Below are positions 578-25,584 of a stretch of 64,000 nucleotides of DNA, piece by piece; position 1 is the stretch's first letter; each line of letters opens with the position of its first letter. A model generated the notes under the pieces. The model did no database searches. It saw nothing but the letters and a program-made list of their open reading frames with translations, and was not told the origin of the DNA. The position numbers and the translations under genes were made by a program. The stretch is from a virus. The stretch lies in the IMG/VR virus record IMGVR_UViG_3300045988_167906, one strand, 5' to 3'.

Positions 578-606
578 TTGACATTTGCCATAGGGTGTGC
601 TAATAT
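578..606 (+). promoter_or_regulatory. sigma70-like promoter (TTGACA-17-TAATAT) followed by conserved leader AATTGTTCCAAGGG
   Basis: Canonical -35/-10 hexamers with 17-nt spacing upstream of the first gene. Confidence 0.55.
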
Positions 607-654
607 ATAATTGTTCCAAGGGAACAGATAAAAAATGAAATGGAGATACAAAAA

Positions 655-816
655 ATGACTACTGAAAGAATCGCTGAACTGCTGAACGAATGGATTGATA
701 ATGACCATGATTTCAGTGCGGAATCCATCAATGACTTCTGCAACACATATGCCCGCAACTACGACGAGTATATGGGTCTGTGGTACACAGTCTGCGGTTG
801 CATCGAGGAGGACTAA
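655..816 (+). CDS. hypothetical early protein (53 aa)
   Basis: ATG preceded by GGAGA RBS. Ends TAA. Below the 60-aa cutoff of the six-frame track. Confidence 0.45.
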   Translation: MTTERIAELLNEWIDNDHDFSAESINDFCNTYARNYDEYMGLWYTVCGCIEED

Positions 817-1962: not shown

Positions 1963-2148
1963 AATCAATTTGAGTTTCCTCCCATATTTTGGGAGGAAAT
2001 TCTTATTTGAAAATTATAGAAAAAAATAATATAATTTTTTATATAAAAAAAATAATTTTTATTTCTGTTTCAATTCTATAATTTTCCAGTCGAAAAATCA
2101 AATGCGGAAAATTTTGGCAATCCCATAATTTGGGAATTCATTTGAGCC

Positions 2149-2170
2149 AGCCGCGATCCAACGCCGCGGC
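2149..2170 (+). terminator. intergenic hairpin ccagccgcg-atccaacg-ccgcggctgg, one of a conserved family
   Basis: Family members at 4324, 5465, 7762 and 9549 all carry a CCAACG/CCACG loop and are followed by an AT-rich spacer plus a promoter. Confidence 0.5.
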
Positions 2171-2291
2171 TGGAATTTCGCGAATTAAAGTGCTAACGTA
2201 AAAAAGTTTTCCAAATCCTTCCAGCCCAGCCCTTGGAAATTTTTCCCAAAATCTTTGTGTAATTTGACGAAAGTATTTTCCATTTTATGTC

Positions 2292-2320
2292 TTGACATTT
2301 GGCTTGCCCTGTGCTATACT
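2292..2320 (+). promoter_or_regulatory. sigma70-like promoter TTGACA-17-TATACT
   Basis: Hexamers seen in sequence. Confidence 0.55.
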
Positions 2321-2353
2321 ATAAACAATCCAAGAGGAAAGGAACTGATTAAA

Positions 2354-2521
2354 ATGACTGACCGCGAAGCCCTCGACCAAATTCTGGAACATCTGAATGG
2401 GAACTTGCAATCTATTGTTGCTGATGAATCAACATATGTCGAAATTGAGAACGCCTGTTTAGGCGAAGACATTATGTTTGAATTTGACAAAAATGGAAAT
2501 ATTTTGTCAATCGGTTCTTGA
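2354..2521 (+). CDS. hypothetical protein (55 aa)
   Basis: AAGAGGAAAGGA RBS. Confidence 0.4.
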   Translation: MTDREALDQILEHLNGNLQSIVADESTYVEIENACLGEDIMFEFDKNGNILSIGS

Positions 2522-2535
2522 AAGGAGAATCTGAT

Positions 2536-2919
2536 ATGAAAGTCTATATGGCTGGTGCGTTCTTCCGTCCTGAAACAAAATCAAGAATTGATTCATATGC
2601 GGCTGGTTTCCGGCGGCTTGGGTATGATGTATTTGTGCCACAAGAACATACAGTCCCGAACGCTTGGGAGATGTCGCAAGAGGATTGGGCAAGGGAAGTT
2701 TTCAAAATGGATATTGCCGCCATTCAAGAATGTGACATGGTGTTTGTTGTATATGATGGTCTGTATTCTGATTCTGGAACAGCTTGGGAAATCGGATATG
2801 CTTATGCTCTTGGGAAAAATATCCAAATGAGTGTAAATAATGGTGTAAAAGATATGTCTATTATGCCATTTGCAAGTGCTTGGGCTATTGAAAACTATAA
2901 AAATATTAAATTAGTTTGA
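2536..2919 (+). CDS. nucleoside 2-deoxyribosyltransferase-like protein (PF05014-like)
   Basis: MAGAFFRPE ... DSGTAWEIGYAYALGK matches the conserved deoxyribosyltransferase/Rcl core motif. Assignment is from family knowledge. Confidence 0.6.
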   Translation: MKVYMAGAFFRPETKSRIDSYAAGFRRLGYDVFVPQEHTVPNAWEMSQEDWAREVFKMDIAAIQECDMVFVVYDGLYSDSGTAWEIGYAYALGKNIQMSVNNGVKDMSIMPFASAWAIENYKNIKLV

Positions 2920-2928
2920 AAAAAACAC

Positions 2929-2957
2929 TTGACAAATTTGGTTGAACCTGTTATAAT
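2929..2957 (+). promoter_or_regulatory. sigma70-like promoter TTGACA-17-TATAAT
   Basis: Hexamers seen in sequence. Confidence 0.55.
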
Positions 2958-2990
2958 AAAGATACTCCAAAAGAGAAAGGAAATGATAAA

Positions 2991-3464
2991 ATGATTAAGG
3001 AATTATGTTTCGATCTTGATGGAACTCTGGTTGACCTCTATGGTGTGGAAGATTGGCTTGATAAAATTCGAGCCTATGACCCTACACCCTATCAGACCGC
3101 CGAACCGCTGGTTGATATGGCAGAACTTGCTTGTCTGCTCCGTAGCTTGCAGAACTGCGGTATCAATGTCGCAGTTATCACTTGGCTGTCAAAAGAGCCG
3201 AACAAGCAGTATGATGATGAAGTCAGAAAAGCAAAACGAGCTTGGCTGAAAGAATATGGTTTTCCATTTGACAGTCTGCGATGTGTAGCTTATGGAACGC
3301 CGAAGCATAAGGTTGAAGCCGCAAGACTTGCTGATGATGAAGAAGCCCTGATTTTTGATGATGATGCAAGAGTCCGCAGGGATTGGGACTTGGGCGGAGC
3401 AATCGACCCGACTAAGGTTGACATTCTGGAAGTATTGAAAGAAATTTTGAATGGGCTGGAATAA
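2991..3464 (+). CDS. HAD-superfamily hydrolase, 5'(3')-deoxyribonucleotidase-like
   Basis: N-terminal DLDGTL (HAD motif I) and later acidic motifs. Confidence 0.55.
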   Translation: MIKELCFDLDGTLVDLYGVEDWLDKIRAYDPTPYQTAEPLVDMAELACLLRSLQNCGINVAVITWLSKEPNKQYDDEVRKAKRAWLKEYGFPFDSLRCVAYGTPKHKVEAARLADDEEALIFDDDARVRRDWDLGGAIDPTKVDILEVLKEILNGLE

Positions 3465-3488
3465 TCCAGCCCATAAGGGGAAAATGAA

Positions 3489-3707
3489 ATGAATGATATT
3501 CTTAAAGAGCTTACAGACTTGGCAAACCAGATTGGAAAATTAGCTGGAAAAATTTACTGTGAAAAAAAGAATATCTCAAATCCTTATGATTTTACAAACG
3601 CACAAGAATTAAGTGATAAACTGTTTGAAATTCATTCTGATTTACAAAATGACTGTTATACTTTGGCTGTTGCCATTTGGGGAGACGATGAAGATGATGA
3701 TTCCTAA
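3489..3707 (+). CDS. hypothetical protein (72 aa)
   Basis: RBS GGGGAAAATGAAATG. Confidence 0.45.
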   Translation: MNDILKELTDLANQIGKLAGKIYCEKKNISNPYDFTNAQELSDKLFEIHSDLQNDCYTLAVAIWGDDEDDDS

Positions 3708-3882
3708 AAAAATTACTGTCAAATATTCAGGCTATGATGAAAAAAGAGTATATTATAACAATGAATTAGATTTTCGCACAGAACGTGATGCCGATTCATT
3801 TATTTTAGACATGAAAAGACTTATGTTCGGAGTAAAGACCTACACAAAAATTATTACTTGGGGAGAAGAATCAAATGAATGA
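3697..3882 (+). CDS. hypothetical protein (~61 aa)
   Basis: Overlapping start ATGATGA. Confidence 0.4.
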   Translation: MIPKKITVKYSGYDEKRVYYNNELDFRTERDADSFILDMKRLMFGVKTYTKIITWGEESNE

Positions 3883-3960
3883 CGAACAGCTTGACATTTT
3901 GCTTGAAGAAGCAACGGACATTAAAATTTTAATTGCCTTGGGCTGAAAGGATGGATAAAA

Positions 3961-4248
3961 ATGGAAACAAAATTTATTTGGGTAGTTCATTTTGAAGAAG
4001 CAGATTTCAACGACTTGGACTGTGCATTCGACAGTTTTGAAATGGCGAAAGAAGCAGTCCAGACAATTTTTGACAAAGTTTCCGCAGTAAATCCTGCTTG
4101 GCAGAATCTGATGCTGGATGATGAAGATATCGAAGATGAATGGGCTGTTTTCAGTTTTGATTATATCGGAGAAGATGCCAAATTCTTGCTGAAACCAAAT
4201 GTTGGTATTACAGTTTTTCCTTGTCCTCTCAATTCACTTCCTATTTGA
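3961..4248 (+). CDS. hypothetical acidic protein (95 aa)
   Basis: RBS AAGGATGG. Confidence 0.45.
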   Translation: METKFIWVVHFEEADFNDLDCAFDSFEMAKEAVQTIFDKVSAVNPAWQNLMLDDEDIEDEWAVFSFDYIGEDAKFLLKPNVGITVFPCPLNSLPI

Positions 4249-4410
4249 AAAATTTGGGAATCCAGATTTTGGATTCCCATTTTCTTACTTGTCTATTGGA
4301 ATTAAATGGAAATTCTATTTGAGCCTGCCGCGAACCAACGCCGCGGCAGGCATTTTAGATTTTCAGCATTTTCACCAATTTTTCGCCCGGAAATTTGTGC
4401 AAAATGACAG

Positions 4411-4439
4411 TTGACTTTTCTCCCGATACCTGTTATACT
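4411..4439 (+). promoter_or_regulatory. sigma70-like promoter TTGACT-17-TATACT plus AATTGTTCCAAGAG leader
   Basis: Hexamers seen in sequence. Confidence 0.55.
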
Positions 4440-4478
4440 ATAATTGTTCCAAGAGATAATAAGTAAGGAGAATAAACT

Positions 4479-4892
4479 ATGAAAAATCTGTATTGGAAAC
4501 GCATTTACATGAAAATGAATGATGGTCAAGAGTCTATTCTGAATTGGGACCCGCAACTTGTCTATCGCCCCGAACCGCCTGAAAATGAAGTATTGACAAT
4601 TAAAAACACAACAGACCTTGCTGTAGCTATTTGCAGTAATTATGTTAATGGTTTTATCAAGCGTGGAACTTTTGACAGAAGAATCAAAAAATTCCATATC
4701 GAGAATATGAGATACTGGAAAGGCGAAGAATACAAGCCCGAAAAAATCAGTTTCCCTGTTTCACGTGAAACAATTTATAAGCCAGTTGATTATGACATGA
4801 GTTTCAAGAAGTTGTCGGGAGAATTGTCCGCAGAAGATTTTATTCGTTGGATGAAAGACAATGGAATGAACACTTGCCCGATTATGAAATAA
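4479..4892 (+). CDS. hypothetical protein (137 aa)
   Basis: RBS AAGGAG. Confidence 0.5.
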   Translation: MKNLYWKRIYMKMNDGQESILNWDPQLVYRPEPPENEVLTIKNTTDLAVAICSNYVNGFIKRGTFDRRIKKFHIENMRYWKGEEYKPEKISFPVSRETIYKPVDYDMSFKKLSGELSAEDFIRWMKDNGMNTCPIMK

Positions 4893-4899
4893 ATTAGGG

Positions 4900-4928
4900 G
4901 TTGACAAACAACCCCTAATGTGATACAA
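4900..4928 (+). promoter_or_regulatory. sigma70-like promoter TTGACA-17-TACAAT inside the terminator hairpin aggggttg/caacccct
   Basis: Hexamers seen in sequence. Confidence 0.5.
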
Positions 4929-4959
4929 TAGATTTATCAAAAGAAAGGAATTGATAAAA

Positions 4960-5412
4960 ATGAAAGCAACTGGCATTATTCGCAGAATTGATGACCTTGG
5001 ACGTGTTGTTATTCCGAAAGAAATCCGCCGTAACTTGAAGATTCGCGAGGGAGACCCTCTTGAAATCTTTATTGAAGATGATAACTGCGTTTGCTTTAAG
5101 AGGTATTCGGTGCTTGGTTCGCTGACCGAAGATGCTATGCGAATTGCTATTAAAATGGCGTCGAATTCCGGTCTGCGTCCCATCGCAATCTATGATACTA
5201 CCGTGAAACTGCAGGGCATGGAAAACTTTCCAGCTTATGTTCCAACCCAGTGGGAATTTAAAAGAAAGCCGTTTGTTTTCAATAACACTTATGGCGTTTA
5301 CCCGATTTGTGCGGACGGCGAGCTTGTGGGTTATACAGTTTGCGACCGGCAGGACATGGGTTGCGAAATGGACATGATTGCCCGCTACCTCAACCTTATG
5401 TCTGAATGTTAA
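4960..5412 (+). CDS. AbrB/SpoVT-family transcriptional regulator (N-terminal swapped-hairpin domain) with a ~100-aa C-terminal extension
   Basis: MKATGIIRRIDDLGRVVIPKEIRRNLKIREGDPLEIFIED closely matches the AbrB N-domain (MKSTGIVRKVDELGRVVIPIELRRTLGI...). This family is Firmicutes-typical. Confidence 0.75.
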   Translation: MKATGIIRRIDDLGRVVIPKEIRRNLKIREGDPLEIFIEDDNCVCFKRYSVLGSLTEDAMRIAIKMASNSGLRPIAIYDTTVKLQGMENFPAYVPTQWEFKRKPFVFNNTYGVYPICADGELVGYTVCDRQDMGCEMDMIARYLNLMSEC

Positions 5413-5414
5413 AA

Positions 5415-5453
5415 AAATAATACAAGAGGCTTGACAAAATAAGCCTCTTGTAT
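5415..5453 (+). terminator. 14-bp-stem hairpin aatacaagaggctt/aagcctcttgtatt followed by a T run
   Basis: Perfect inverted repeat then TTTTTTGAG. Confidence 0.6.
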
Positions 5454-5551
5454 TATTTTTTGAGCCTCGCGGCCACGGTCCAGCCGCGAGGATTTTTAGA
5501 TTTTTGGCACATTGCACAATTTTTTACTCACAAATTTGGTTATTCTGCCAA

Positions 5552-5580
5552 TAGACAAAAATCCTGAAATCGTGTATAAT
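5552..5580 (+). promoter_or_regulatory. sigma70-like promoter (TAGACA-17-TATAAT) plus GAAAGGAATTGATA initiation motif
   Basis: Hexamers seen in sequence. Confidence 0.5.
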
Positions 5581-5612
5581 TAAGATACAAATTAAGAAAG
5601 GAATTGATAAAA

Positions 5613-5924
5613 ATGATTATGAACGCCGCTATTGTTAAAGCAATGAATTTGCAGGACTTGAACGACTACATAAATAACAAGAAGCCGGAAGAATTACAGA
5701 CCTTAATTGCATTAGCCAAGGAAAGAATTAACCAGTTAGACCAAGAGAAAGAAGCAAAATACATGGCCGCAATCATCAAGTCTGTTCAGGATTATCTGGA
5801 TAATGTTGGAGATTTGACATTCCATGTTGAGTATGAAGACGAAGATGGCCAGGACGCGGCTACTGACATCACCGTAGACAATCTGAATCCGCCTGCTGGT
5901 GGCAATGGAATCATTTATATTTAA
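5613..5924 (+). CDS. hypothetical protein (104 aa)
   Basis: Conserved GAAAGGAATTGATAAAAATG initiation context. Confidence 0.5.
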   Translation: MIMNAAIVKAMNLQDLNDYINNKKPEELQTLIALAKERINQLDQEKEAKYMAAIIKSVQDYLDNVGDLTFHVEYEDEDGQDAATDITVDNLNPPAGGNGIIYI

Positions 5925-5936
5925 GGAGTGATACAA

Positions 5937-6251
5937 ATGCTTACAAATCCGGGTTTTTATTTTGCTTGGTTAGTTTTAACCATTCTTCCTTTAATGATCG
6001 CCATTGTTGCCCCTGAAACTTGGCATGGTAGAGTTGTTGCTGTTCTGATTGCGATTGCTATTGGTTTTGGCGTTGCAACTCTATTGTACAAAGAACAAGA
6101 AAGCAATCATGACCGCTGGAATAATGGTTATTGTGAATGTGGCGGTCAGTATCAATTTTCAAGTGCTACAAATTATCGCGGTTCAAAAGATTATTACTAT
6201 ACTTGCGATAGTTGTGGACACACAGAAGAATTTTCTTCAATCATGAAATAA
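5937..6251 (+). CDS. small membrane protein with C-terminal Cys4 zinc ribbon
   Basis: Two hydrophobic segments, then CECGG...CDSCGH. Confidence 0.5.
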   Translation: MLTNPGFYFAWLVLTILPLMIAIVAPETWHGRVVAVLIAIAIGFGVATLLYKEQESNHDRWNNGYCECGGQYQFSSATNYRGSKDYYYTCDSCGHTEEFSSIMK

Positions 6252-6255
6252 AAAA

Positions 6256-6300
6256 TGCCGGTTGGGAAAAAAATTATAAAAAAAAATTCCCAACCGGCTT
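6256..6300 (+). terminator. hairpin gccggttgggaa...ttcccaaccggc (12-bp stem)
   Basis: Perfect inverted repeat after the stop. Confidence 0.55.
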
Positions 6301-6357
6301 GACAAATTAAAAAAAATTTGATATAATAATAGTACCAAAAGGAAAGGAATTGATACT

Positions 6358-6519
6358 ATGATAGCATTGATGAAATACGAATGTGGGTTAAGATTCACAG
6401 GACTTGTTTTTGAAGATGAAGAAACAGCGGAAAAATACATGAAAGAGCATTGGATAAATCCAAAAGAAGTAAAGTTAGTACCAGCAACTGGATATTTCAA
6501 AAATGGTGAAATTAAGTGA
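6358..6519 (+). CDS. hypothetical protein (53 aa)
   Basis: GGAAAGGAATTGATACTATG context. Confidence 0.4.
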   Translation: MIALMKYECGLRFTGLVFEDEETAEKYMKEHWINPKEVKLVPATGYFKNGEIK

Positions 6520-6534
6520 AAGGAATTGATAAAC

Positions 6535-6945
6535 ATGACTGAAATTACAACCTATGAGTGCGACTTCTGCGGGCAGGTGTTCAACGATGAAGAAGAATGT
6601 ATTCATCACGAATGGAAATGCAGATACGAAGATTTATGTAAATCTGAAAATTGCGAGCCGTTGACGCTGTTCGACCTTGAAGGCAAGGAAATTGAGGGAT
6701 TTAATTATCCTAAATGTGATGAAATTGGGGCGGTGGAAATTCATTCTTATGCCCAAGCACAATTCATCAATGATTATTTTGATGAAATGGGCTATGAAGT
6801 TCCCATTAAAATTGTCATGGGACTGATTGACTACTATGGTCTGTGGTATTATGACCCTGAATACCATTATGGCGAGTGGCGGTCTTATGAAGAAGTTCTT
6901 GAAGATATTCAGGAAATTGGCAAGAAATTTAATCAAGGGGCTTGA
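6535..6945 (+). CDS. hypothetical protein with N-terminal CxxC...HHxxxC zinc-finger-like motif
   Basis: TYECDFCGQVFNDEEECIHHEWKC. Confidence 0.5.
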   Translation: MTEITTYECDFCGQVFNDEEECIHHEWKCRYEDLCKSENCEPLTLFDLEGKEIEGFNYPKCDEIGAVEIHSYAQAQFINDYFDEMGYEVPIKIVMGLIDYYGLWYYDPEYHYGEWRSYEEVLEDIQEIGKKFNQGA

Positions 6946-7000
6946 CAAGCCCCTTGACCTGTGATATAATTGATTTATCAAAAGGAAAGGAAATGATACA

Positions 7001-7276
7001 ATGAATTATCAGGTTATTTTCATGGACAATGAAGGAACTGTTCAAACGGGTATCTGGAATCAGGACAGAGATGAAATTATCTGCGGCTGTTGTGGTGCAA
7101 CAATCGAATCGGGCGATTTTGTCCTGCTTCACATCTATGATGAATGGTTGAACATCACCGATGAAATCTGCGGGGATGACGGAGAAATTCTCAATGAGAT
7201 TGAAGAAAAGGTCGATAGACTAACTACCTCTGAAATTGAGGCAATTCTTGATGGAAAGAAGGATTTTAACGAATGA
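7001..7276 (+). CDS. hypothetical protein (91 aa)
   Basis: GGAAAGGAAATGATACAATG context. Confidence 0.45.
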   Translation: MNYQVIFMDNEGTVQTGIWNQDRDEIICGCCGATIESGDFVLLHIYDEWLNITDEICGDDGEILNEIEEKVDRLTTSEIEAILDGKKDFNE

Positions 7277-7422
7277 GAGGAAAGAGATTTAACAAGGGCG
7301 GTTATACCGCCCAAGTCATCCAGTGGGATGATACAGACGCCTTGTGGATTTGCCAATACTCTTGGGGCGAATACTTCTATGAAGATGATGAATTTATCAG
7401 GGAAAATCTGGTGGAGGATTGA
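7273..7422 (+). CDS. hypothetical protein (49 aa)
   Basis: ATGA overlap with the upstream gene. Below track cutoff. Confidence 0.35.
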   Translation: MRGKRFNKGGYTAQVIQWDDTDALWICQYSWGEYFYEDDEFIRENLVED

Positions 7423-7424
7423 AA

Positions 7425-7745
7425 ATGGCTTTTTTTATTAAGGTTATTATGGCTTGGTTTAGAAGAAATGAAATGCCAGTTGTAATTTATGGTGCAGATG
7501 GTCTTCCCGTTACAAGTTATAATACCACGGTAAAAGATTACTGGTTTCCAAAAAATTTAGGAGAAGCATCAAAAATTGAAAATGGCTGGTATTGTTATCC
7601 ATTGAATGCCAATGGTGAATACTGTGGTTGTATTTGCTGGGAATGGTGGGAAGATGATGATGATTTTGAACAGCCAGACATTTATGATGTTTTGAACATC
7701 TGTAATCTTCTGGAAATTGCTTGCGGTTTGGATGAAAATTCCTAA
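7425..7745 (+). CDS. hypothetical protein (Cys/Trp-rich C-terminus)
   Basis: RBS GGAGGATTGAAAATG. Confidence 0.45.
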   Translation: MAFFIKVIMAWFRRNEMPVVIYGADGLPVTSYNTTVKDYWFPKNLGEASKIENGWYCYPLNANGEYCGCICWEWWEDDDDFEQPDIYDVLNICNLLEIACGLDENS

Positions 7746-7895
7746 AAAAAATGGGCGGTTCGTTTGAGCCGCCCAATTACCAACGCAATTGGGCGGCATT
7801 TTAATTTTTAAGCATTTTGCACAATTTTTTCATGCAAATTTTGTGCAATTTGCCAATAGACAAGAATCCTGAAACATGGTATAATTCATAATGTC

Positions 7896-7995
7896 AAGAG
7901 GGAACAGCAACTAAAAGTGCTTGGCATCATTAGCCGGGCTACACAACTTCCGCGGTTCGTGTGTAAAAAAAATAAAATTCCCTCTTGACAATCCC
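7896..7995 (+). ncRNA. candidate small structured RNA between two promoters (long-range 11-bp inverted repeat tcaagagggaa ... ttccctcttga)
   Basis: Promoter 7857-7885 fires into a ~100-nt region with no ORF or RBS. The ends pair, there is an internal CCGCGG element, and an A-run closes the stem. Confidence 0.3.
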
Positions 7996-8013
7996 CACCT
8001 GATGTGCTATAAT
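7985..8013 (+). promoter_or_regulatory. sigma70-like promoter TTGACA-17-TATAAT
   Basis: Hexamers seen in sequence. Confidence 0.55.
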
Positions 8014-8063
8014 TAAGTCAACAAGTGAAGGAAACACTTAAAAACCAGAAAGGAATTGATACC

Positions 8064-8450
8064 ATGGAAAAGATTAAAGCCCCCACCCGCAAGGAAATGT
8101 TCACCCGCGTTTCTGATTTCCTCGCAGAACATGAAGCAGATACTGCCCTGATTGATTTTGTCAATCACCAGATTGAGCTTCTGGACAGCAAGAAGGAAAA
8201 CAAGAAGCAGGCCAAAGAGCAGGAAGAAAACGCCGCCTACTCTGATGCAATCTATGAGCAGATGGCATTCGAGCGTAAGTACAGCGTCGCAGAGCTGATG
8301 AAGGAGCTTCCGGCTGTCAGCGATTGGAACGCCAACCATGAAACCGAGCTGTCGGTTCAGAAGCTCGCAAGTCTGTTGAAGCCGCTTGTCGATGGTGGCA
8401 AGGTCATTAAGACCACGGAGAAGCGTCGCGTGTTCTACACCAAGGCGTGA
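8064..8450 (+). CDS. paralog family A member 1 (C-terminal DGGKVIKTTEKRRVFYTKA)
   Basis: Paralogous to 10903-11280 and 39816-40211, sharing the conserved C-terminal motif. Confidence 0.55.
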   Translation: MEKIKAPTRKEMFTRVSDFLAEHEADTALIDFVNHQIELLDSKKENKKQAKEQEENAAYSDAIYEQMAFERKYSVAELMKELPAVSDWNANHETELSVQKLASLLKPLVDGGKVIKTTEKRRVFYTKA

Positions 8451-8458
8451 TAAACCAA

Positions 8459-8484
8459 GGGGGGGCGGAGAAATCCGCCCCACT
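8459..8484 (+). terminator. hairpin ggggcgga-gaaa-tccgcccc
   Basis: Inverted repeat. Confidence 0.5.
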
Positions 8485-8499
8485 AATTAAGGAGAGCCT

Positions 8500-8898
8500 A
8501 TGAGAGAATTGACTGAAAAGGAATGGGCAAAAGTCGATAATCTTGTTGACAAGCTGGAATGTTCGATTGATGAAGCAGTTGACATTCTGGACGCCGACAA
8601 AGCTATTGACCGTAATCAAAAGGTTGATTTTGATTTAAGTCCAGAAGAACATAAGCAAGCAATGAAACTTGCTAATGTCAAAGAGCATACGGTCAAGAAA
8701 AGCAATGTGTACCGCCCGCGTAAGCCTAATGAAATTAAAGGTGCGATTATCGCCGGTTTGTCAAAATATTTGGCAGAAATGGCAGATTTTGAAGTGTTGG
8801 ATGAAGAAATCACCAACAAAGAGCGGACGATAATGTTTACAAGTGGCGGCGAACGGTTTGAATTGACCCTTATCCAGAAAAGAAAGCCGAAAAGTTAA
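8500..8898 (+). CDS. paralog family B member 1 (basic C-terminus ...ERFELTLIQKRKPKS)
   Basis: Paralogous to 11373-11735. Confidence 0.5.
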   Translation: MRELTEKEWAKVDNLVDKLECSIDEAVDILDADKAIDRNQKVDFDLSPEEHKQAMKLANVKEHTVKKSNVYRPRKPNEIKGAIIAGLSKYLAEMADFEVLDEEITNKERTIMFTSGGERFELTLIQKRKPKS

Positions 8899-8954
8899 AG
8901 AAAATGGGGATTTTTCCCCATTTTCTTCCAAAAAAATTGAAAAAGGTGATAAAA

Positions 8955-9521
8955 ATGGCAAAAAATCCCACGTATTCTGATTATGTTTCGTCCAACGATT
9001 TTGAGGGTGCAAAGGAAAGATTTGACAATGCAAACAAGCGTTGGAAATCTCATTGGTTTGAAGCTTGCGAAGAAATTTTCAACGCTTGCAAAGATTGGGC
9101 AAAAAAGTATATTCTGGACAAGGTAAATCAAGCAATCCTTATCATTGGTGAGTTTGTTACCAAGAGACGGCCAAAAGAAGAAGGAACAAGTAACACCTAC
9201 CTAATCAAAATGTTTGATGAAGCAGGCAAATGGGTTTTTACAAAAATTGGTAAGGCTAATATAATTGCAAAGAGGATGCAAGGGCTTCTTAAACGTGAAT
9301 ACAAAAGAGGCGGCAGGGTAAAGATTTCTAACATTGAAATTGTAAAGTCTTACCAGTTGCCGAATGATGACCTTGCCCAAGTTCTGGAAAACCTGATGAG
9401 AGCTTATTTCAGAAAAACTCGGAAATTTATTCCAAACGATAGGTTCGAGGCGTTTGAACCGACTGCCGAAGATTTACAAGTTTTTGAAAATAATTACAAT
9501 TTGGTAATGGCGAACGCATAG
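8955..9521 (+). CDS. hypothetical protein (~188 aa)
   Basis: RBS AAAAGGTGATAAAAATG. Confidence 0.5.
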   Translation: MAKNPTYSDYVSSNDFEGAKERFDNANKRWKSHWFEACEEIFNACKDWAKKYILDKVNQAILIIGEFVTKRRPKEEGTSNTYLIKMFDEAGKWVFTKIGKANIIAKRMQGLLKREYKRGGRVKISNIEIVKSYQLPNDDLAQVLENLMRAYFRKTRKFIPNDRFEAFEPTAEDLQVFENNYNLVMANA

Positions 9522-9725
9522 GGGCAGAAATGCCCCTTTTTATTTTGAGCTGCCCGGCCACGACCTAGCCGGGCAGAATTTCCAATATTTACCAGTTTTA
9601 CCAATTTTTTTACCAAAACCCTGCTTCATTTGATTAAAGTATTAAATCCTTAAAGTGCCGCACTTTACCACATTAAAGTGTTAAAGCGTGCATAAATATT
9701 CATTGAAAATGAATAAATATTCTTC

Positions 9726-9754
9726 TTGACATTTTGGGCAAGGTGTGATAATAT
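9726..9754 (+). promoter_or_regulatory. sigma70-like promoter TTGACA / TAATAT
   Basis: Hexamers seen in sequence. Confidence 0.5.
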
Positions 9755-9816
9755 ATAAGAGCAATGAGGGAGCGATGGCAAACCCTGATTGACATTATTA
9801 AAAGGATGGAAACCCT

Positions 9817-10674
9817 ATGACTAAACTTGATAAGCGTCGAAAGTATTACCTGATTCTGGATTGTGAGACGGCTACCTTGCCGTATGCCGCAAAGTTTCCC
9901 GCAGATATGAAGAAGAATGTAGCAATCGCCAAGCCGCTGATTTATGATTTGGGATGGCAGATTGTGGATATTCGGGGCAAGGTCTACAAGCGTGCGTCCT
10001 ATCTCATTTCTGAGATTTTCAGTGTTCCCGCCGTTTTCAATACTGCATATTATGCAAGCAAGCGTCCGATTTATCTTGACCGTCTAAAAGCCGGAGAAAT
10101 CAAGCTGACGGACTGGAATACGGCTGTCGCAGAACTGATTGAAGATTTGGACGCTGTTGTAGCTGTTGGAGCATATAACAGTATGTTCGACTTTAAGAAG
10201 GCTATTCCATTCACTGACCTGTATGTTTCCAAGCTGTACTCGCCTGATTTCTTTGAATGGGAATCTTATCAGAATGAACGATGTGAAGCAATCGCCCATG
10301 GAAGCAAGCCCCATTTGCAGAAAGAGTTTGAACCTGATATTTTCCGCTTCCATGGCAAGGCGTATCCGCTGTTTGACCTGTGGGGCTTGTCTTGTGAACA
10401 TCTGTTGAATAATCCTGACTATAAGCAGATGTGCTATGATAATGAGTGGAGAACGGCAAGCGGCAAATATTATCCGACTAACGCGGAAAAGGCATTTGCC
10501 TATTGTTTCCAGCAGGAAGATTTTGAAGAAGCACATACTGCAATCGAGGACGCAATCATTGAATCCATGCTGTTTGCCCTCATTGGAGAAAAGACCAAGC
10601 ACAAGTTTGAGATGGGTATTGAATATTTCCCCTACAAAAAGTTGGGAAGATTTGACAGTGATTGGGAGCTGTAA
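9817..10674 (+). CDS. DEDD-family (DnaQ-like) 3'-5' exonuclease
   Basis: YLILDCETA (Exo I D-x-E) and HTAIEDA (Exo III H-x-A-x-x-D). Confidence 0.65.
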   Translation: MTKLDKRRKYYLILDCETATLPYAAKFPADMKKNVAIAKPLIYDLGWQIVDIRGKVYKRASYLISEIFSVPAVFNTAYYASKRPIYLDRLKAGEIKLTDWNTAVAELIEDLDAVVAVGAYNSMFDFKKAIPFTDLYVSKLYSPDFFEWESYQNERCEAIAHGSKPHLQKEFEPDIFRFHGKAYPLFDLWGLSCEHLLNNPDYKQMCYDNEWRTASGKYYPTNAEKAFAYCFQQEDFEEAHTAIEDAIIESMLFALIGEKTKHKFEMGIEYFPYKKLGRFDSDWEL

Positions 10675-10802: not shown

Positions 10803-10831
10803 TTGACAAATCAATAGGTTTGTGATACAAT
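10803..10831 (+). promoter_or_regulatory. sigma70-like promoter TTGACA-17-TACAAT plus AATTGTTCCAAGAG leader
   Basis: Hexamers seen in sequence. Confidence 0.55.
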
Positions 10832-10902
10832 ATAATTGTTCCAAGAGAGGAACACAAAACAAATAAGGGTTGCGACCTACCGCTAGAAAGGAATTGATAA
10901 TT

Positions 10903-11280
10903 ATGGAAAAGAAGATTACCTATGCTCAGGCTCTGAACACCGTTCTGAACAATGAGAACATCATCCTTGCATCTGATGTGCGGGAGAAGCTGGAAGCTCT
11001 GCTTGCTTCTGTCTCCAAGAAGTCCGGCGAGAGAAAGGAAACTGCACAGCAGGTGGAGAACGCCGAGATGGTGGAGCGGATTTATCAGGAGATGGAAGCC
11101 AACCGCACCTACTCTATTGCCGAACTGATTAAGGAACTGCCGGTTGTGGCTGACTTCAATGCCAACCATGAGAATGATATGTCCACGCAGAGAATGGCGA
11201 ATCTGCTCAGAACCCTCGTGGAAGATGGCAAGGTTATCAAGACTACTGAAAAGCGGCGTGTCTATTACACCAAGGCATAA
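10903..11280 (+). CDS. paralog family A member 2 (...DGKVIKTTEKRRVYYTKA)
   Basis: Same C-terminal motif as 8064-8450. Confidence 0.55.
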   Translation: MEKKITYAQALNTVLNNENIILASDVREKLEALLASVSKKSGERKETAQQVENAEMVERIYQEMEANRTYSIAELIKELPVVADFNANHENDMSTQRMANLLRTLVEDGKVIKTTEKRRVYYTKA

Positions 11281-11372
11281 GTGAAAAAGAAGTAAGGGGA
11301 GTTTTCTCCCCTTACTTCTCCCAGCTAATTCCAGATAGTTCCCAGCAAAGAAAATTCTAATAGGACGGTAAA

Positions 11373-11735
11373 ATGTCAATGACCGCTGAAAAGTTGGCAA
11401 ATTCGCTTAAAATTTCCATTGAAGAAGCTAACCAAGTTTTGGAAATGGATAAGCGAATTGATAGGGGCGAAAAGTTGTTTGAGTTGCCGCCGGAGTTTGA
11501 AGCAGGAGCGAAAAAGGCAAGACGTGCTGACCGGAAGAAAGTGGAAAATGTAAAACGGGAACGCAAACCTGATGAAGATAAAAGGGAGCTAATCCAGTAT
11601 TTGGAAAGTTCCTTGGAAGATGCCTACCCTGATTTAGATTTGGGTAATATTACCATTACAAATCCAGAACGAGAAATGGAATTTATTTACAATGGAATTA
11701 AATACCGGTTGACCCTGATGCGTCCAAGGAAATAA
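11373..11735 (+). CDS. paralog family B member 2 (...KYRLTLMRPRK)
   Basis: Paralog of 8500-8898. Confidence 0.5.
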   Translation: MSMTAEKLANSLKISIEEANQVLEMDKRIDRGEKLFELPPEFEAGAKKARRADRKKVENVKRERKPDEDKRELIQYLESSLEDAYPDLDLGNITITNPEREMEFIYNGIKYRLTLMRPRK

Positions 11736-12033
11736 TTGGAATGGGATTTTCTCCCATTCCAATTTTTGGAATTATAATTGGAAAATTTTTCCAAGGAAAA
11801 TATTGGAACAGATGGTAATTTCAGCCGGTCGTCACTGGCAGTGATGACCGGAATTCTAGAAAAACTTACCATATGGCAATTTTTTGCTCAATCTAGCGGC
11901 CTCTCATATGCCGCATGTTTTTCCCGAAACTGGTTCGCTTCGCTCACTATATTTGCAATTTTTAAAAAAATATTTTATAATATATATACAGAATAAAGAG
12001 TTCTGAAAATCTTTATAAAGAGGTAATATACAT

Positions 12034-12429: not shown

Positions 12430-12814
12430 GGAAAAGGGCTTATGCCCTTTTCTTTTTAGCCTAAAATGGAAATTTTTGGAAAGTCAAATTTGACTTTTAT
12501 AAAAAAATATGATATAATATTAAAAAAAGATATAATTGCATTAGGGTAGAGATTATTTGTTGTCGGTCGATATAGCAATAATAGGGGTGCCACTGGTGCA
12601 GTAGGGCCACACCCACTTCCTCATTTTAATATAATTTTAATATAATTTAGCTTAATTTGGCATTATTTTAATACAATTTAATACTATTTTTAGTAATTTA
12701 ATTCAATTCTTTAAATAATTTAATCTTTAATAATTGACCTTCAATTTTCTGCATAACCAATTTCTTTAACTTTATATTTAATTTTCATTTTCTTTACACT
12801 CTCTACCCTATCTT

Positions 12815-13529: not shown

Positions 13530-13790
13530 ATGTCCTATTTTCCCCGAAGGGGTAAATGGGACATTTTGTCTGTCCCAATGAGACATTTTGATAAAAATGG
13601 GACATTGGGACGGGACATCTTCTTTACTTCGCTTATGTCCCATATGTCCCAATGTCCCATTTTACTTAAAATTTTAAATAAAACATCCAGTGCTTATGTC
13701 CTAATGTCCCATTTTATCTATGATATTCCATTTAAAATGGGACATTTTTCATGTCCCATTTTTTTGAGACATTTATTTGCTTGTGTCTCA
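13530..13790. repeat. iteron-like cluster: at least 10 copies of ATGGGACAT / ATGTCCCAT (plus degenerate variants) in both orientations within ~260 bp
   Basis: Directly counted in sequence. Non-coding, between minus-strand genes. Confidence 0.7.
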
Positions 13791-14636: not shown

Positions 14637-14788
14637 ATATATTCTCCTTTTCTTTTATTAATCTACTATATATAAAAATATAAATAATATCTTTAACCGC
14701 GGTGGCCCAAAAAATTTTAAGTAATTTATAACAAGTTTAATTGATATAAGTTGAAATAAAAATATACCTATTGGTTTTATAAATAGTG

Positions 14789-14825
14789 GAAAAATATAAA
14801 AAAATTTGATAAAATATATATAAGA
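14789..14825 (+). promoter_or_regulatory. conserved phage middle/late promoter motif (AAAATATAAAAAAATTTGATAAAATATATATAAG)
   Basis: One of about 20 occurrences of TTTTATAAAAAAATATTATAAAATATATATA-like elements ~25-40 nt upstream of gene starts. Confidence 0.5.
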
Positions 14826-15818: not shown

Positions 15819-16012
15819 AAATCTACACAGGCCTGCAACGCCAAAAGCATGTCAAGACGACAAACATTCGCACAATCCGTTTCTACCCTACTGAACGCAC
15901 CATTAATCTCTACTATTGGAATAATCAAAAAGAAACTATCAAATTTGATGATGAAGATTACTGCCGTGCCGCATATAAAAAACTACACGAATATATTGCT
16001 TATCCGTTTTAA
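15812..16012 (+). CDS. hypothetical protein (66 aa)
   Basis: Overlapping start. Confidence 0.4.
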   Translation: MVKIYTGLQRQKHVKTTNIRTIRFYPTERTINLYYWNNQKETIKFDDEDYCRAAYKKLHEYIAYPF

Positions 16013-16067
16013 TTGAAAAATAAATAAAAATATTATAAAATATATATATAAATGATAGGAGAAAAAA

Positions 16068-18748: not shown

Positions 18749-18835
18749 TCAAAGAGCCAGAGCAAATCTGGCTCTTTTATTTTTATAAAAAAATTTGTTA
18801 AAATATATATATAAAAATGAGGGAGAAAATAAATT

Positions 18836-23460: not shown

Positions 23461-25584
23461 ATGAGTTATTTATTTACCAGTGAAAGCGTTTTTGCCGGTC
23501 ATCCTGATAAGGTTTGTGATTAGGTAAGTGATGCTATTCTGGATTATGTCCTCCAGCTTGATCCTGATGCACGAGTAGCTTGTGAATGTACTATTAGCCC
23601 AGGCATCTTCCATATTATGGGAGAGATCACAGCTAAAACAGAACAATCTATTCCTTATCAGGAAATTGCAAGAGAGACTTTAAGATTTATTGGTTATGAC
23701 AATGATGAAGCAGGATTTAACTGCGACACTTGTTCATATATTATTAATGTAGTAAATCAATCCCCTGACATCGCTGCGGGTGTTGATAGGGATGGTGCTG
23801 GCGACCAAGGCATGATGTTTGGTTATGCAACCAATGAAACAGAAAATTATATGCCTATCGCTCAGCAACTTGCTAACAATATCTCGGTCATTATGTTTAG
23901 TAAGTATAAAAATGATTTGCTACCTTGGGCATTACCTGACGGCAAATGCCAGATAACTGTCCAATACGATGATGATGGCAACTTTGAAGGGGTAGATACA
24001 ATTGTCGTATCGGCCCAACACAAAGACAAGTATAGTATTAAGGAAATAACGCCCGATATTACGAACATTTGTAATATTGCCCTTCAAGGTTATGCCATTA
24101 AAAAAGATTGTAAATTTTATATTAACCCAACAGGTAAGTTTGTGAAGGGCGGTCCCCAGGCTGATACTGGATTAACAGGACGTAAAATCGTTGTAGATAC
24201 ATATGGTGGCTACGCTCCGCATGGTGGTGGATGCGTAAATGGAGATACAGAATTTTTAACCCTTAATGGGTGGAAAAAAATCTCTGAATTTTCTTCAGAT
24301 GATAAAGTAGCTCAATGGGATGATGGCAAGATTTCATTTGTTAATGGTGAATTTGTAAGGCTACCTAAAACTAAAATGTATCATATTGCTACTAATAAAT
24401 CATTGGATATGATATTATCTGATAATCATAATGTTCTCTATAAAACATCTAAAGGAAATTATCAGAAGAAAACTTGTCAAGAAATTTTAGACTATTATTA
24501 TAAAAATAATGGGTTTAGAAGTATTCAAATCCCTATTTATTTTACTTATGATTTTAAGGATAATCCTGGCCTTGATTTAACTGATGATGAAATTAGACTT
24601 CAAGTAGCATTTTGTGCAGATGGTACTATTCTAAAAGAGAATTCAGGATGGACTGGAAGAATTAGAGTTAAAAAGAAATATAAAAAAGAGGCATTAAGAA
24701 AACTATTCGCTTCAACAGGACTTGATTATAAGGAAACCCCAGATAATGATTGTAGTATTTTTTGGTATAAGCCTTCCTTCGTAAATAAAAAAATGAATGA
24801 ATGTTTATCTAAATGCAATTTGCATCAAGCTCAAATAATTGCTGATGAAGTAATTAAATGGGATGGAGATAGAGATTGTGTTTTTAGAACCACACATAAA
24901 GATGAAGCCGATTTTATTCAATTTATTTTTATGGCAGTTTATGGCACATCTTCTCATTTTTCTATTGATGATAGAATAGGTGAAACATTCAGTGAAAATT
25001 ATACTCGTAGAAGTATTTGTTATGAAGTAAGACAAGGTAAATATAAATATTCTACTCCATTCAGAACTTCAGGTTCTTCAATTGCCAATCTAACTATTGA
25101 AGATTATGAAGATAATGATCCTTGGATGTATTGTATTAATGTACCTTCTCATAATCTTGTATTAAGATATAATAATCGAGTTTTTATTACAGGCAATTGT
25201 TTTAGCGGCAAAGACCCCAGTAAGGTAGACCGTAGTGGTGCATATATGGCACGCTATGTAGCTAAAAATCTTGTAGCTTCTGGCGTTTGTGATAAATGTA
25301 TGATTCAAGTTGCTTATATCATTGGACAGACAGAACCTGCATCTATTGATATTAATTGTTTTGGCACAGAAAAGAAACCTATTGCTGAAATTCTTGATGC
25401 AGTTAATCAGACATTTGATTTTGCACCGCGTAGTATTATTCATAAATTTGATTTAAAGCATACTCGCTATTTACCCTATGCTTGTTTTGGTCATTTTGGT
25501 CGTATTGAATGCAATAGTCCTTGGGAACAACTTGATAAAGTAGACGAATTAAAAACAATTTTTGATTTTGAAAAGGAGAACTAA
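23461..25584 (+). CDS. metK: S-adenosylmethionine synthetase (MetK) interrupted by a 322-aa intein; TAG codon at the conserved Gln
   Basis: MSYLFTSESVFAGHPDKVCD(TAG)VSDAILD aligns with E. coli MetK [34 protein letters not shown] and (after the intein) CFSGKDPSKVDRSGAYMARYVAKN are the other MetK signature motifs. Confidence 0.85.
24232..25197 (+). mobile_element. intein inserted in the MetK HGGG|AFSGKD P-loop (starts Cys, ends Asn, +1 Cys)
   Basis: MetK homology is continuous across the deletion of 24232-25197. The insert begins CVNGDTEFLTLNGW and ends ...RVFITGN followed by CFSGKD. Confidence 0.7.

Follow-up and report, generated by a model that had tools for sequence, protein, structure and literature searches.

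Hairpin-promoter-ribosome-site blocks as interchangeable control units of small early genes in a large phage known from metagenomic DNA

Why should the small early genes of one virus be separated by intergenic blocks that look so much alike? The question is raised by IMG/VR virus record IMGVR_UViG_3300045988_167906, of which a stretch of 64,000 nucleotides (nt), hereafter the window, was analysed. An initial annotation of its positions 2140-9600 had singled out five GC-rich hairpins, each followed by AT-rich DNA, a sigma70-type promoter and a stereotyped ribosome-binding site, and had proposed that this uniformity reflects recognition by some factor, such as a translational repressor or anti-terminator, or a duplicative origin of the early cassette. 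According to the data presented below, these blocks of hairpin, promoter and ribosome site are interchangeable control units that flank small early genes, and related phages shuffle them. Somewhat favoured among the explanations considered is that they constitute modular early expression cassettes run by the host machinery, which recombination would both shuffle and keep homogeneous.

The source of the window is a large phage that encodes a SAM synthetase and an RNA ligase and has 14 tRNA genes arrayed at 49.5-55.4 kb; a DNA search of cultured phages returned no close relative of the window or of its early region. For a 285-amino-acid (aa) exonuclease-like protein encoded at 9817-10674 the nearest isolates are Enterococcus phages of ~140 kb, whose "exodeoxyribonuclease" shares 29% identity with it; we take these phages to be Herelleviridae. 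With the same protein 64 related IMG/VR loci were retrieved (38-94% identity), presumably from gut and rumen metagenomes, judging by their sample accessions; each locus spans about ±10 kb around this marker gene, and the contigs, many of them of 100-190 kb, reach ~190 kb. Relatives are labelled L plus a number, the window and the 64 loci make up the 65 sources counted below, and L121-L125 are the close relatives compared for mosaicism. The best explanation of these data is a large phage of gut Firmicutes that is distant kin of Herelleviridae. Its first ~12 kb hold ~29 small plus-strand genes, nearly all of them ORFans except for a nucleoside deoxyribosyltransferase, a HAD-like protein and an AbrB/MazE-like DNA binder, and this early region is, by analogy of layout with SPO1, of the host-takeover type (PMC10531801).

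The upstream part of the block is a hairpin, named H2 here, in which a T-run and [G/C]AG are followed by a stem of 9 base pairs (bp) closing a 9-nt loop and then by AATTT; the core takes 27 nt, and the flanks, TTT[G/C]AG on the 5' side and AATTT on the 3' side, are fixed. All five hairpins noticed initially do exist, and TTTGAGC directly precedes each of them, but the common stem ascribed to them does not: stem sequences differ from copy to copy and the arms stay complementary. A search of the whole 64 kb with a covariance model registered six copies rather than five, all within the first 12 kb, the additional one at 11825-11851. The common CCAACG/CCACG loop was likewise a partial truth. The loops of the five copies are of two types, xxCCAACGC in three of them ((A/T)(A/T)CCAACGC or ACCAACGC) and CACGRYCYA, that is CACG(G/A)(T/C)C(C/T)A, in two, and in the latter the supposed "CCACG" straddles the junction of stem and loop.

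From the window and its relatives 41 copies of H2 were aligned, gap-free, at 27 nt. Three pairs are nearly invariant (pair 1, C-G in 41/41; pair 6, C-G in 39/41; pair 7, G-C in 36/41), the other six vary freely, with 136 cells altered on both sides, and two-sided changes affect 8 of the 9 pairs; the semi-conserved loop reads nWCGnnCSn. Since the aligned sequences had been picked as hairpins, the 100% pairing of this alignment is partly built in, and the covariance model serves as the independent test. In 1.23 Mb searched on both strands it gave 66 matches with E < 0.02 (these E-values are rough), all of them on the plus strand and confined to 10 of the 65 sources. The stems comprise 9-11 bp, with a median free energy of about -18 kcal/mol.

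The placement of H2 was found to be regular as well. It stands at operon boundaries in L121-L125, L130, L134, L136 and L138; in 53 of the 66 copies a stable hairpin ends at most 16 nt upstream, usually an ordinary tetraloop terminator (T1) whose U-run enters the GAG, and in 53 of 66 a promoter-like site lies within 260 nt. In 29 of these 53 promoter-bearing copies the -35 box stands at a distance of 59-62 nt from H2, and this holds also for relatives with ~60% protein identity. As this distance is kept across relatives with diverged spacers, one may suppose that H2 acts as DNA: a palindrome or cruciform rich in GC and located at about -96 to -122 relative to the start site would, together with phased T-tracts, form a far-upstream promoter architecture, perhaps bound by a structure-specific or bending protein. 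Symmetry of the conserved stem positions (outer C/G, inner CG/CG), AT-rich flanks, Watson-Crick pairing of the 9-bp core in 366 of 369 cells and the joint movement of H2 with the downstream promoter at recombination junctions would all suit such an element. It is nevertheless improbable: spacings of 81-82, 94-95, 107-108 and ~149 nt also occur, GC-rich loops disfavour cruciform extrusion, flanks and loop are asymmetric and strand-specific, and a dimer binding the duplex needs no complementarity of the arms at variable positions. The G-U content, 3.0% in H2 against 5.7% in ordinary terminators (stems extended), gives no clear separation between H2 and such terminators and hence between function as RNA and as DNA.

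Several known functions of hairpins were tried for H2 and rejected. RNase III sites of the T7 or SP82 early RNA type require ~20 bp of double-stranded RNA, and the stems of H2 have 9-11 bp. The anti-terminator suggested initially does not fit either: a nut-type site of lambda or put-type site of HK022 is transcribed from the promoter that precedes it and comes before terminators, whereas H2 follows T1 and precedes the next -35 box by 60-150 nt, and no boxA-like sequence was seen. An N4-type hairpin promoter, an integron attC-like site and a relaxase or Rep nick site were dropped on geometry or position, and so was a promoter made from the T-run and GAG, plausible -35 and -10 boxes being present only at copy 3.

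Downstream of H2 both the AT-rich spacer and the sigma70 promoter of the initial annotation were recovered. The 60-nt spacer consists of T-tract, UP-like DNA with the consensus aATTTTAgaTTTT..CAATTTTTT..AAaTTTTGTGcA, and the early promoters are of the form TTGACA-17-TATAAT, mostly TG-extended, with 10-12 of 12 consensus positions at 14 early sites. The modules recur as dispersed repeats of 45-90 nt, among which families D2, D3, D6, D9 and D12 include promoters.

The next conserved part is the Shine-Dalgarno (SD) site. GAAAGGAATTGATA occurs in exact form six times in the window (4943, 5596, 6342, 6518, 8048 and 10886), GAAAGGAAATGATA twice (2975 and 6985) and GAAAGGAACTGATT once (2337), which gives nine gene starts; GAAAGGAAWTGATA-N2-3-ATG is found at eight sites, or nine with the GAAAGGAACTGATT variant at 2337. 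Thus, at least eight starts in a common context were counted correctly, but the distance to ATG is 2 or 3 nt instead of an invariant 3, and the site at 10886 falls outside the range then considered. With up to three mismatches the 14-mer has 9 matches against 0.89 expected, a number reached by none of 100 shuffled sequences. For GAAAGGAATTGATA a duplex is predicted with the 16S tail GAUCACCUCCUUUCU, which is the standard one of Firmicutes and may not be the host's, and 12 of the last 15 nt of this tail take part in it. Two helices, of 8 and 4 bp, enclose a 2x2 internal loop where the two central bases of the 14-mer stay unpaired; the energy amounts to -13.6 kcal/mol, compared with -7 to -12 kcal/mol for other SD sites of the region. 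The 14-mer is therefore probably for the most part a very strong SD site. Its copies number 8 in the window (A/T variant included), 6-10 in each close relative and 0-2 in more distant ones, so that exact invariance is a feature of the lineage and not a universal requirement. The remaining leaders of the window are of a short form, (U)ACCAAAAG-GAAAGGAAUUGAUA, with the SD site within ~10 nt of the predicted 5' end.

The idea that conservation goes beyond a bare SD site, weakened by this pairing, was partly upheld by another element, which was found when the SD context was traced into distant relatives. They carry a stereotyped early leader, in which the -10 box is followed by 10-15 nt, a hairpin with a variable 4-5-bp stem and the loop AAGGAAAA, 2-3 nt, the 12-mer AAACCAGAAAGG, 7-9 nt and ATG. 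Among 222 distinct leaders collected via the 12-mer alone, 202 have a fully paired stem, against 34 (maximum 50) with permuted arms; 202 of the 222 also have the loop AAGGAAAA or a variant of it, and 26 different stems are represented. The covariance model of the leader has 273 matches, and in the best 150 of them (118 distinct rows) 98.9% of the cells are paired and 4/4 pairs are changed on both sides. Leaders were aligned as a register-controlled subset (alignment A5), a MAFFT alignment (A4) having been dropped as out of structural register. Covariation, the check proposed at the outset, is seen in both hairpin types. When the search was anchored on the hairpin instead, ACC[AG]GAA followed 129 of 145 hairpins. 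The leader precedes 230 open reading frames (ORFs) in 47 protein families and is therefore a generic early-gene tag; its exact 20-base pattern is present in at least 120 IMG/VR stretches. In the window a single copy, that preceding gene 8064 (8023-8053), is complete, most leaders there being without the hairpin.

Neither hairpin type could be assigned to a described family. Rfam 15 covariance models applied to the window, L153, L168 and L180 gave only tRNAs at both thresholds applied, the leader is not in Rfam, and blastn did not find it in cultured phages. A loose scan of viral contigs for TTTGAGC-N7-13-CCAACGC returned single chance matches only, the literature searched yielded no description of an H2-type hairpin or of a AAGGAAAA / AAACCAGAAAGG leader, and the literal leader sequence met there only primer coincidences. 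H2 and the leader are thus conserved families absent from the RNA-family and literature sources searched.

Part of the leader is not explained by ribosome binding. Its AAACCA and the loop AAGGAAAA, both invariant at 92-98%, cannot pair with the standard Firmicutes 16S tail (which may not be the host's), and pairing of ACCAG with an extended host tail was rejected as a general explanation, the 16S sequence being followed by CTGGT in only 31 of 185,579 species, two Clostridia among them. These invariants therefore leave room for recognition by a factor. In this case H2 and/or the early leader would be address labels, RNA signals read by a dedicated trans-acting factor: a phage protein, a host RNA-binding protein or an RNase, with CsrA and RNase Y as examples. 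RNase Y is described as cutting single-stranded RNA just ahead of a stable hairpin, and by this analogy H2 may combine an endonuclease site with a 5' stabiliser; after a cut in the single-stranded UUU(G/C)AG, T1 would cap the RNA on the upstream side and H2 that on the downstream side. The leader may, again by analogy, be a global translational operator or decay tag resembling the targets of T4 RegA / RegB or the dual GGA sites of CsrA. Such a factor is compatible with the constraints on H2 that exceed pairing (its three near-invariant pairs, fixed flanks and fixed length), with the retention of TTTGAG at copy 4, where it is not the U-run of a terminator, and with the presence of one paired leader before 47 unrelated gene families. 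The geometry is also CsrA-like, with one GGA in the loop of a 4-5-bp hairpin and another in the SD site ~22 nt away, inside the 10-63 nt over which CsrA bridges two GGA sites (PMC7652899), although this second coincidence is partly trivial because any SD site contains GGA.

Other data make a dedicated factor possible but on the whole doubtful. No candidate for it was found. A phage-encoded CsrA as reader of the leader was rejected, no homologue being present among 17,325 six-frame ORFs of the window and the 64 loci. Nor does the sequence context match: instead of the RUACARGGAUGU-like consensus the leader has GAAGGAAAAC and AGAAAGGAA, the ACA...GU of the consensus selected in vitro (SELEX) is absent, and the loop measures 8 nt and not 6. 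Most leaders of the window have no hairpin to be read, and RNase Y and RegB serve here as analogies. One protein family, encoded at 8500-8898 and 11373-11735 and represented by 68 homologues, is the only one that co-occurs with H2 (10/10 H2-bearing sources against 0/55 others), a coincidence that may reflect phylogeny. Among its searched homologues there were no names and no Pfam or PHROG match, and its AlphaFold model (pLDDT 81.8) gave no PDB fold match with E < 0.4.

That the blocks are exchanged as units follows from the comparison with L121-L125. Gene 2354-2521 is absent from L125 and L122, the junctions being at two SD-ATG sites (2357 and 2536). Gene 6358-6519, flanked by the 14-mer at 6342 and 6518, is absent from L122-L125 (junctions 6355/6518), and in L125 genes 4479-4892 and 4960-5412 stand in reverse order. 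Homology with L125 and L121 restarts exactly at 9544, the TTTGAGC of H2 copy 5, and paralogous matches between modules also begin at TTTGAGC (5459 and 4318); H2 therefore moves with the downstream promoter, and the boundary of a cassette runs between T1 and H2. Within -25..+5 of a start codon lie 35 of 100 homology block ends against 7.4 expected, these ends coming from five related genomes and not being independent observations, and many of the remaining ones fall at stop codons. Breaks at start codons, stop codons and TTTGAGC mean that genes are swapped cassette by cassette, and the same blocks, repeated every 0.4-2 kb, would serve as homology for recombination. A whole two-gene cassette is duplicated, at 8064-8898 and 10903-11735, with proteins ending in ...KVIKTTEKRRVFYTKA and ...KVIKTTEKRRVYYTKA; its second gene belongs to the family that co-occurs with H2. 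The duplicative origin considered initially is supported by dispersed repeats, by this duplication and by breaks of homology at the modules.

The same data bear on the suspicion that there is nothing special here, and that consensus promoters, terminators and SD sites of the host recur by chance or convergence, having no common descent. The promoter hexamers and most of the SD site do fit the general Firmicutes consensus, and TTTGAGC taken alone is not over-represented in the window (13 copies, 11.8 expected). Repeat families of 45-90 nt, however, reach well past any consensus element, H2 and the leader covary and are restricted to related phages and to one strand, the 14-mer is specific to a lineage, and junctions of gene gain and loss sit on the motifs. 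We consider mere recurrence of this kind very improbable.

Based on these results one can assume a cassette of the following composition: a 27-nt GC-rich H2 hairpin with fixed flanks; a spacer of ~60 nt that contains T-tracts and resembles an UP element; a sigma-A promoter, TG-extended and close to consensus; a leader that is either very short or capped by a hairpin; an SD site predicted to pair with 12 of the last 15 nt of the standard Firmicutes 16S tail; one to few small ORFan genes; and an ordinary intrinsic terminator, T1. Such cassettes would be operated by host RNA polymerase and ribosomes. The exit terminator T1 and the H2 that follows it, an entry stem-loop of the next cassette comparable to the stem-loop of the PeSL elements discussed below, would together shield neighbours from read-through, and an SD site placed within ~10 nt of the 5' end or behind a 5' hairpin would favour strong initiation and shield, probably stabilise, the end of the transcript. 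Recombination between the repeated blocks would insert, delete and reorder genes and, most probably, keep the blocks homogeneous within each lineage. For this modular organization as a whole we estimate a probability of roughly 0.55.

The estimate is lowered by several points. H2 has the GC-rich stem of an intrinsic terminator but is otherwise a poor one: the loop is nominally 9 nt (5-7 nt with inner pairs formed), and a textbook terminator needs a U-run that starts at the stem, while the tail of H2, AAUUU, begins with AA and has 3-4 T in 8 nt. A terminator consensus scan flags only one of the five hairpins in the initially annotated range, that at 7768-7797, and a good terminator usually stands just upstream already. 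Termination requires neither a constant length of 27 nt nor an invariant closing C-G, internal CG pairs, the semi-conserved nWCGnnCSn loop, unvarying flanks or a promoter kept 60 nt away. AAACCA and the leader loop stay outside the pairing with the 16S tail, and the non-independence of block ends and the choice of H2 sequences by their fold, noted above, also weigh on this side.

Along the window the blocks, all on the plus strand, differ in completeness. H2 copy 1 occupies 2141..2178, where TTTGAG and AATTT enclose the core 2147-2173 (CCAGCCGCG / ATCCAACGC / CGCGGCTGG); it matches covariance model R1 at 2137-2183 with 45.9 bits and is preceded at 2121..2135 by T1, which by its fold is a small ordinary terminator-like hairpin (TCCCATAATTTGGGA + ATTCATTT). 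At 2292..2356 there follow the promoter TTGACA-17-TATACT (TG-extended), a CCAAGAG leader, the SD site GAAAGGAACTGATT (2337-2350) and ATG 2354, and at 2929..2993 a 12/12 consensus promoter, a short leader, GAAAGGAAATGATA (2975-2988) and ATG 2991. H2 copy 2 (4318..4355, core 4324-4350, loop AACCAACGC, 49.1 bits) stands behind T1 at 4255..4279 and ahead of a unit of repeat family D2 (4351..4481), which comprises the 60-nt T-tract, UP-like spacer, the promoter TTGACT-17-TATACT (4411-4439), the leader AATTGTTCCAAGAG (4442-4455), the SD site AAGGAG and ATG 4479. The compact module 4893..4962 has the -35 box TTGACA in the loop of its hairpin (4893-4919), a TG-extended -10 box at 4924-4929, a leader of ~25 nt, GAAAGGAATTGATA at 4943-4956 and ATG 4960 of the AbrB/MazE-like gene. 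H2 copy 3 (5459..5496, core 5465-5491, loop CACGGTCCA, 52.1 bits) follows a T1 that is a long A/U-flanked terminator hairpin with TTGACA in its loop (5412..5461); its 60-nt spacer, promoter TAGACA-17-TATAAT (5552-5580), GAAAGGAATTGATA (5596-5609) and ATG 5613 fill 5492..5615. Next come a consensus promoter right behind a hairpin, with a short leader, GAAAGGAATTGATA (6342-6355) and ATG 6358 (6299..6360), an operon-internal GAAAGGAATTGATA + AAC + ATG of gene 6535 (6518..6537), and a second compact module (6933..7003) whose hairpin covers the -35 box (6942-6947), with the -10 box at 6965-6970, GAAAGGAAATGATA at 6985-6998 and ATG 7001.

H2 copy 4 (7763..7802, hairpin 7769-7796 or, with one more pair of positions, 7768-7797, loop ACCAACGC, 42.8 bits) is predicted to share one arm with an alternative, mutually exclusive hairpin TGGGCGG / CCGCCCA at 7752..7775; the upstream arm of the latter, 7752-7758, which competes with copy 4 for the same partner, is kept in L121, L122, L123 and L125. 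The promoter TAGACA-17-TATAAT at 7857-7885 then stands before a ~100-nt non-coding stretch (7892-7990; whole unit 7857..7990) that folds closed, with a free energy of -35.7 and a z-score of -4.9, and whose 13-bp closing helix overlaps the next -35 box. Among relatives, promoters of this kind stand before stretches that contain sequences like the T-arm of a tRNA (L138 near 7136, GGTTCAAATCC; L134 near 1160, GGTTCGACTCC). The unit 7985..8066 combines a consensus promoter (7985-8013) with the sole full early leader of the window, in which the hairpin 8023-8039 (AAGTG / AAGGAAA / CACTT) precedes AAACCAGAAAGG (8042-8053) overlapping GAAAGGAATTGATA (8048-8061), with ATG at 8064; covariance model R2 matches it at 8014-8053 with 36.5 bits. 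T1 at 9520..9537 and H2 copy 5 (9544..9581, core 9550-9576, loop CACGACCTA, 50.5 bits) come before the promoter TTGACA-17-TAATAT and leader (9726..9819) of the 285-aa exonuclease-like gene with ATG 9817. Copy 6 (11815..11861, core 11825-11851, 35.6 bits), beyond the initially annotated range, again lies after a terminator (11734-11764) and before an AT-rich promoter (11953-11981).

Directly 3' of the -10 box some promoters have AATTGTTCCAAGAG, at 4442 and 10834 without mismatch and at 609 with a single one; the three leaders reported to carry it thus comprise two exact copies and an approximate one, and of these 609 and 10834 are outside the range initially annotated. As concerns the AATTGTTCC motif, AATTGTTCCAAGAG begins a third conserved element, TGTTCC-loop-GGAACA, right past the -10 box, which was registered beside it at 65 plus-strand sites in 25 sources. 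It is seen at 578..657, upstream of the range just mentioned, as a promoter with the 5'-terminal hairpin TGTTCC-AAG-GGAACA (612-626), and, as a leader of the same type, at 10803..10905, where the promoter is followed by TGTTCC-AAGAGA-GGAACA (10837-10854, inside AATTGTTCCAAGAG), GAAAGGAATTGATA (10886-10899) and ATG 10903. The stem is conserved in sequence and shows no covariation; judged by sequence, a 5'-terminal RNA hairpin and a palindromic DNA operator over the start site are equally plausible.

Some further elements near promoters were observed. Terminator-like hairpins at 4893-4919, 5412-5461 and 6933-6959 carry the -35 box TTGACA in the loop or 5' arm; hairpins of this kind, with an extended -10 box directly past the 3' arm, make up a compact overlap of terminator and promoter, and many are present in L130, L134 and L136. 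In L139-L151 a perfect palindrome TGGGACGT-N3-ACGTCCCA lies ~10 nt upstream of many -35 boxes (for example, at 5179, 9911 and 11432 of L143), often after a GC-rich hairpin; it is conserved in sequence and has the appearance of an operator bound by a protein dimer. A second promoter-like repeat, TTGAAAAATATAAAAAAATTTGATAAAATATATATA, is very rich in AT and occurs at 2006-2037, 11952-11983, 12489-12520, 14786-14817, 16012-16043 and 18775-18806, that is mostly past 12 kb, and may represent a different temporal class. Among hairpins, a longer GC-rich one at 356-423 (CGGGGCGTGGCGA ... TCGCCACGCCCCG + CATTTTCC), upstream of the promoter at 578, matches the H2 model weakly (E 0.23), has no TTTGAGC flank and may be an expanded relative of H2. 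Two hairpins of L137 (4815 and 6196) have in common the 5' flank GATACTnCGG and the loop ACCTCC(TC), followed by ATTTTTT, and this loop resembles the anti-SD sequence of 16S rRNA.

Outside the early blocks, the SAM synthetase (23617-25584, 655 aa) has its central domain at residues 59-175 and the C-terminal one at 517-638, and the ~340 unmatched residues between them possibly represent an inserted domain or an intein. A 406-aa protein (57783-59003) matches Mtd_N (major tropism determinant) at its N-terminus with 26.0 bits, the cut-off being 26.3, which hints at a target of a diversity-generating retroelement. Between 12000 and 16000 the GC skew goes negative, the GC content falls to 0.32 and plus-strand ORFs are few; direct repeats of ATGTCCCATTTT are located at 13643-13775, and in at least 10 relatives the contig ends 2.7-6.8 kb past the exonuclease gene, approximately at this position. 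The segment may mark a terminus of the genome, an origin, or a break in the assembly.

For annotation, the H2 model, the leader model and the TGTTCC...GGAACA hairpin can be used as markers of early regions, transcription units and gene starts. The leader, of which more than 270 copies stand in front of 47 gene families, gives the impression of a clean cis-regulatory RNA motif not described before. Were a factor to read it, the timing of host-takeover genes in these phages would become accessible. Such a factor would allow early mRNAs to be stabilised, processed or shut off jointly throughout a clade of large phages from gut and rumen, and would be a Firmicutes-phage counterpart of T4 RegA/RegB with a new RNA signal. 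The cassettes may also prove to be ready-made strong expression parts for Gram-positive hosts.

Among known systems, nut and put RNAs, REP (repetitive extragenic palindromic) elements and single-stranded N4 promoters are all hairpins recognised in single-stranded form, by their shape and by some of their bases or flanking positions. REPs lie outside genes, are rich in GC and keep a conserved sequence on their 5' side; their stems, unlike those of H2, are conserved in sequence within one genome. The hairpins of N4, with stems of 5-7 bp and loops of 3 nt, take the place of host promoters, whereas the early region described here does have consensus sigma-A promoters. In Firmicutes, mRNAs are stabilised at the 5' side by 5'-terminal stem-loops, STAB-SD elements and ribosome binding near the 5' end. 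The leader hairpin, 3-8 nt from the predicted 5' end and with an SD-like AAGGA in its loop, is similar to them, as alternatively is a true SD site ~10 nt or less from the 5' end; each stabiliser known so far is a case by itself, however, and here one stereotyped leader with invariant AAACCA stands on hundreds of genes. T4 RegB and RegA offer the parallel of early genes with a distinctive common ribosome-binding context through which one factor could shut them off together, but the motif is different and no homologue is present. With CsrA/RsmA the leader has in common the layout of the two-site hag leader of B. subtilis (PMC7652899), and differs from CsrA/RsmA targets in the absence of ACA...GU, in loop size and in the lack of a csrA gene in the window and 64 loci.

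Early genes of SPO1 have unusually strong ribosome-binding sites, and in its relative SP82 curved DNA lies upstream of an early promoter. Like the host-takeover module of Bacillus phage SPO1 and early regions in Herelleviridae (PMC10531801; Kayvirus transcriptome, PMC7698491), the window has about two dozen small ORFan genes in short operons behind strong host-type early promoters, although the 285-aa protein of the window is only ~29% identical to that of cultured members. The PeSLs (promoter early stem-loops) of T4-like phages consist of a strong sigma-70 promoter with AT-rich DNA upstream, a stem-loop that terminates incoming transcription and an SD site, and are found at indel junctions; their terminator activity and mini-circles have been demonstrated (Arbiol et al. 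2010, PMC2839356; Comeau et al. 2014, PMC4122927), while the cassettes described here are known from sequence. The latter likewise are dispersed intergenic repeats of ~100 nt, made up of a stable stem-loop, an AT-rich region, a repeated near-consensus host promoter, and an SD site and start codon at the 3' side; they are located among small ORFan early genes at insertion, deletion and replacement junctions of close relatives, and the compact modules at 4893 and 6933 put the hairpin over the -35 box, as many PeSLs do. They differ in belonging to another phage lineage, with hosts of the phylum Firmicutes and sigma-A promoters, in having two hairpins per junction (T1 and H2), and in an H2 of fixed 27 nt with three near-invariant pairs and fixed flanks, placed 60 nt upstream of the -35 box. 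The idea of a mobile promoter-terminator cassette, which originates from T4-like coliphages, is thereby extended to uncultured, abundant 100-190 kb phages of gut and rumen Firmicutes.

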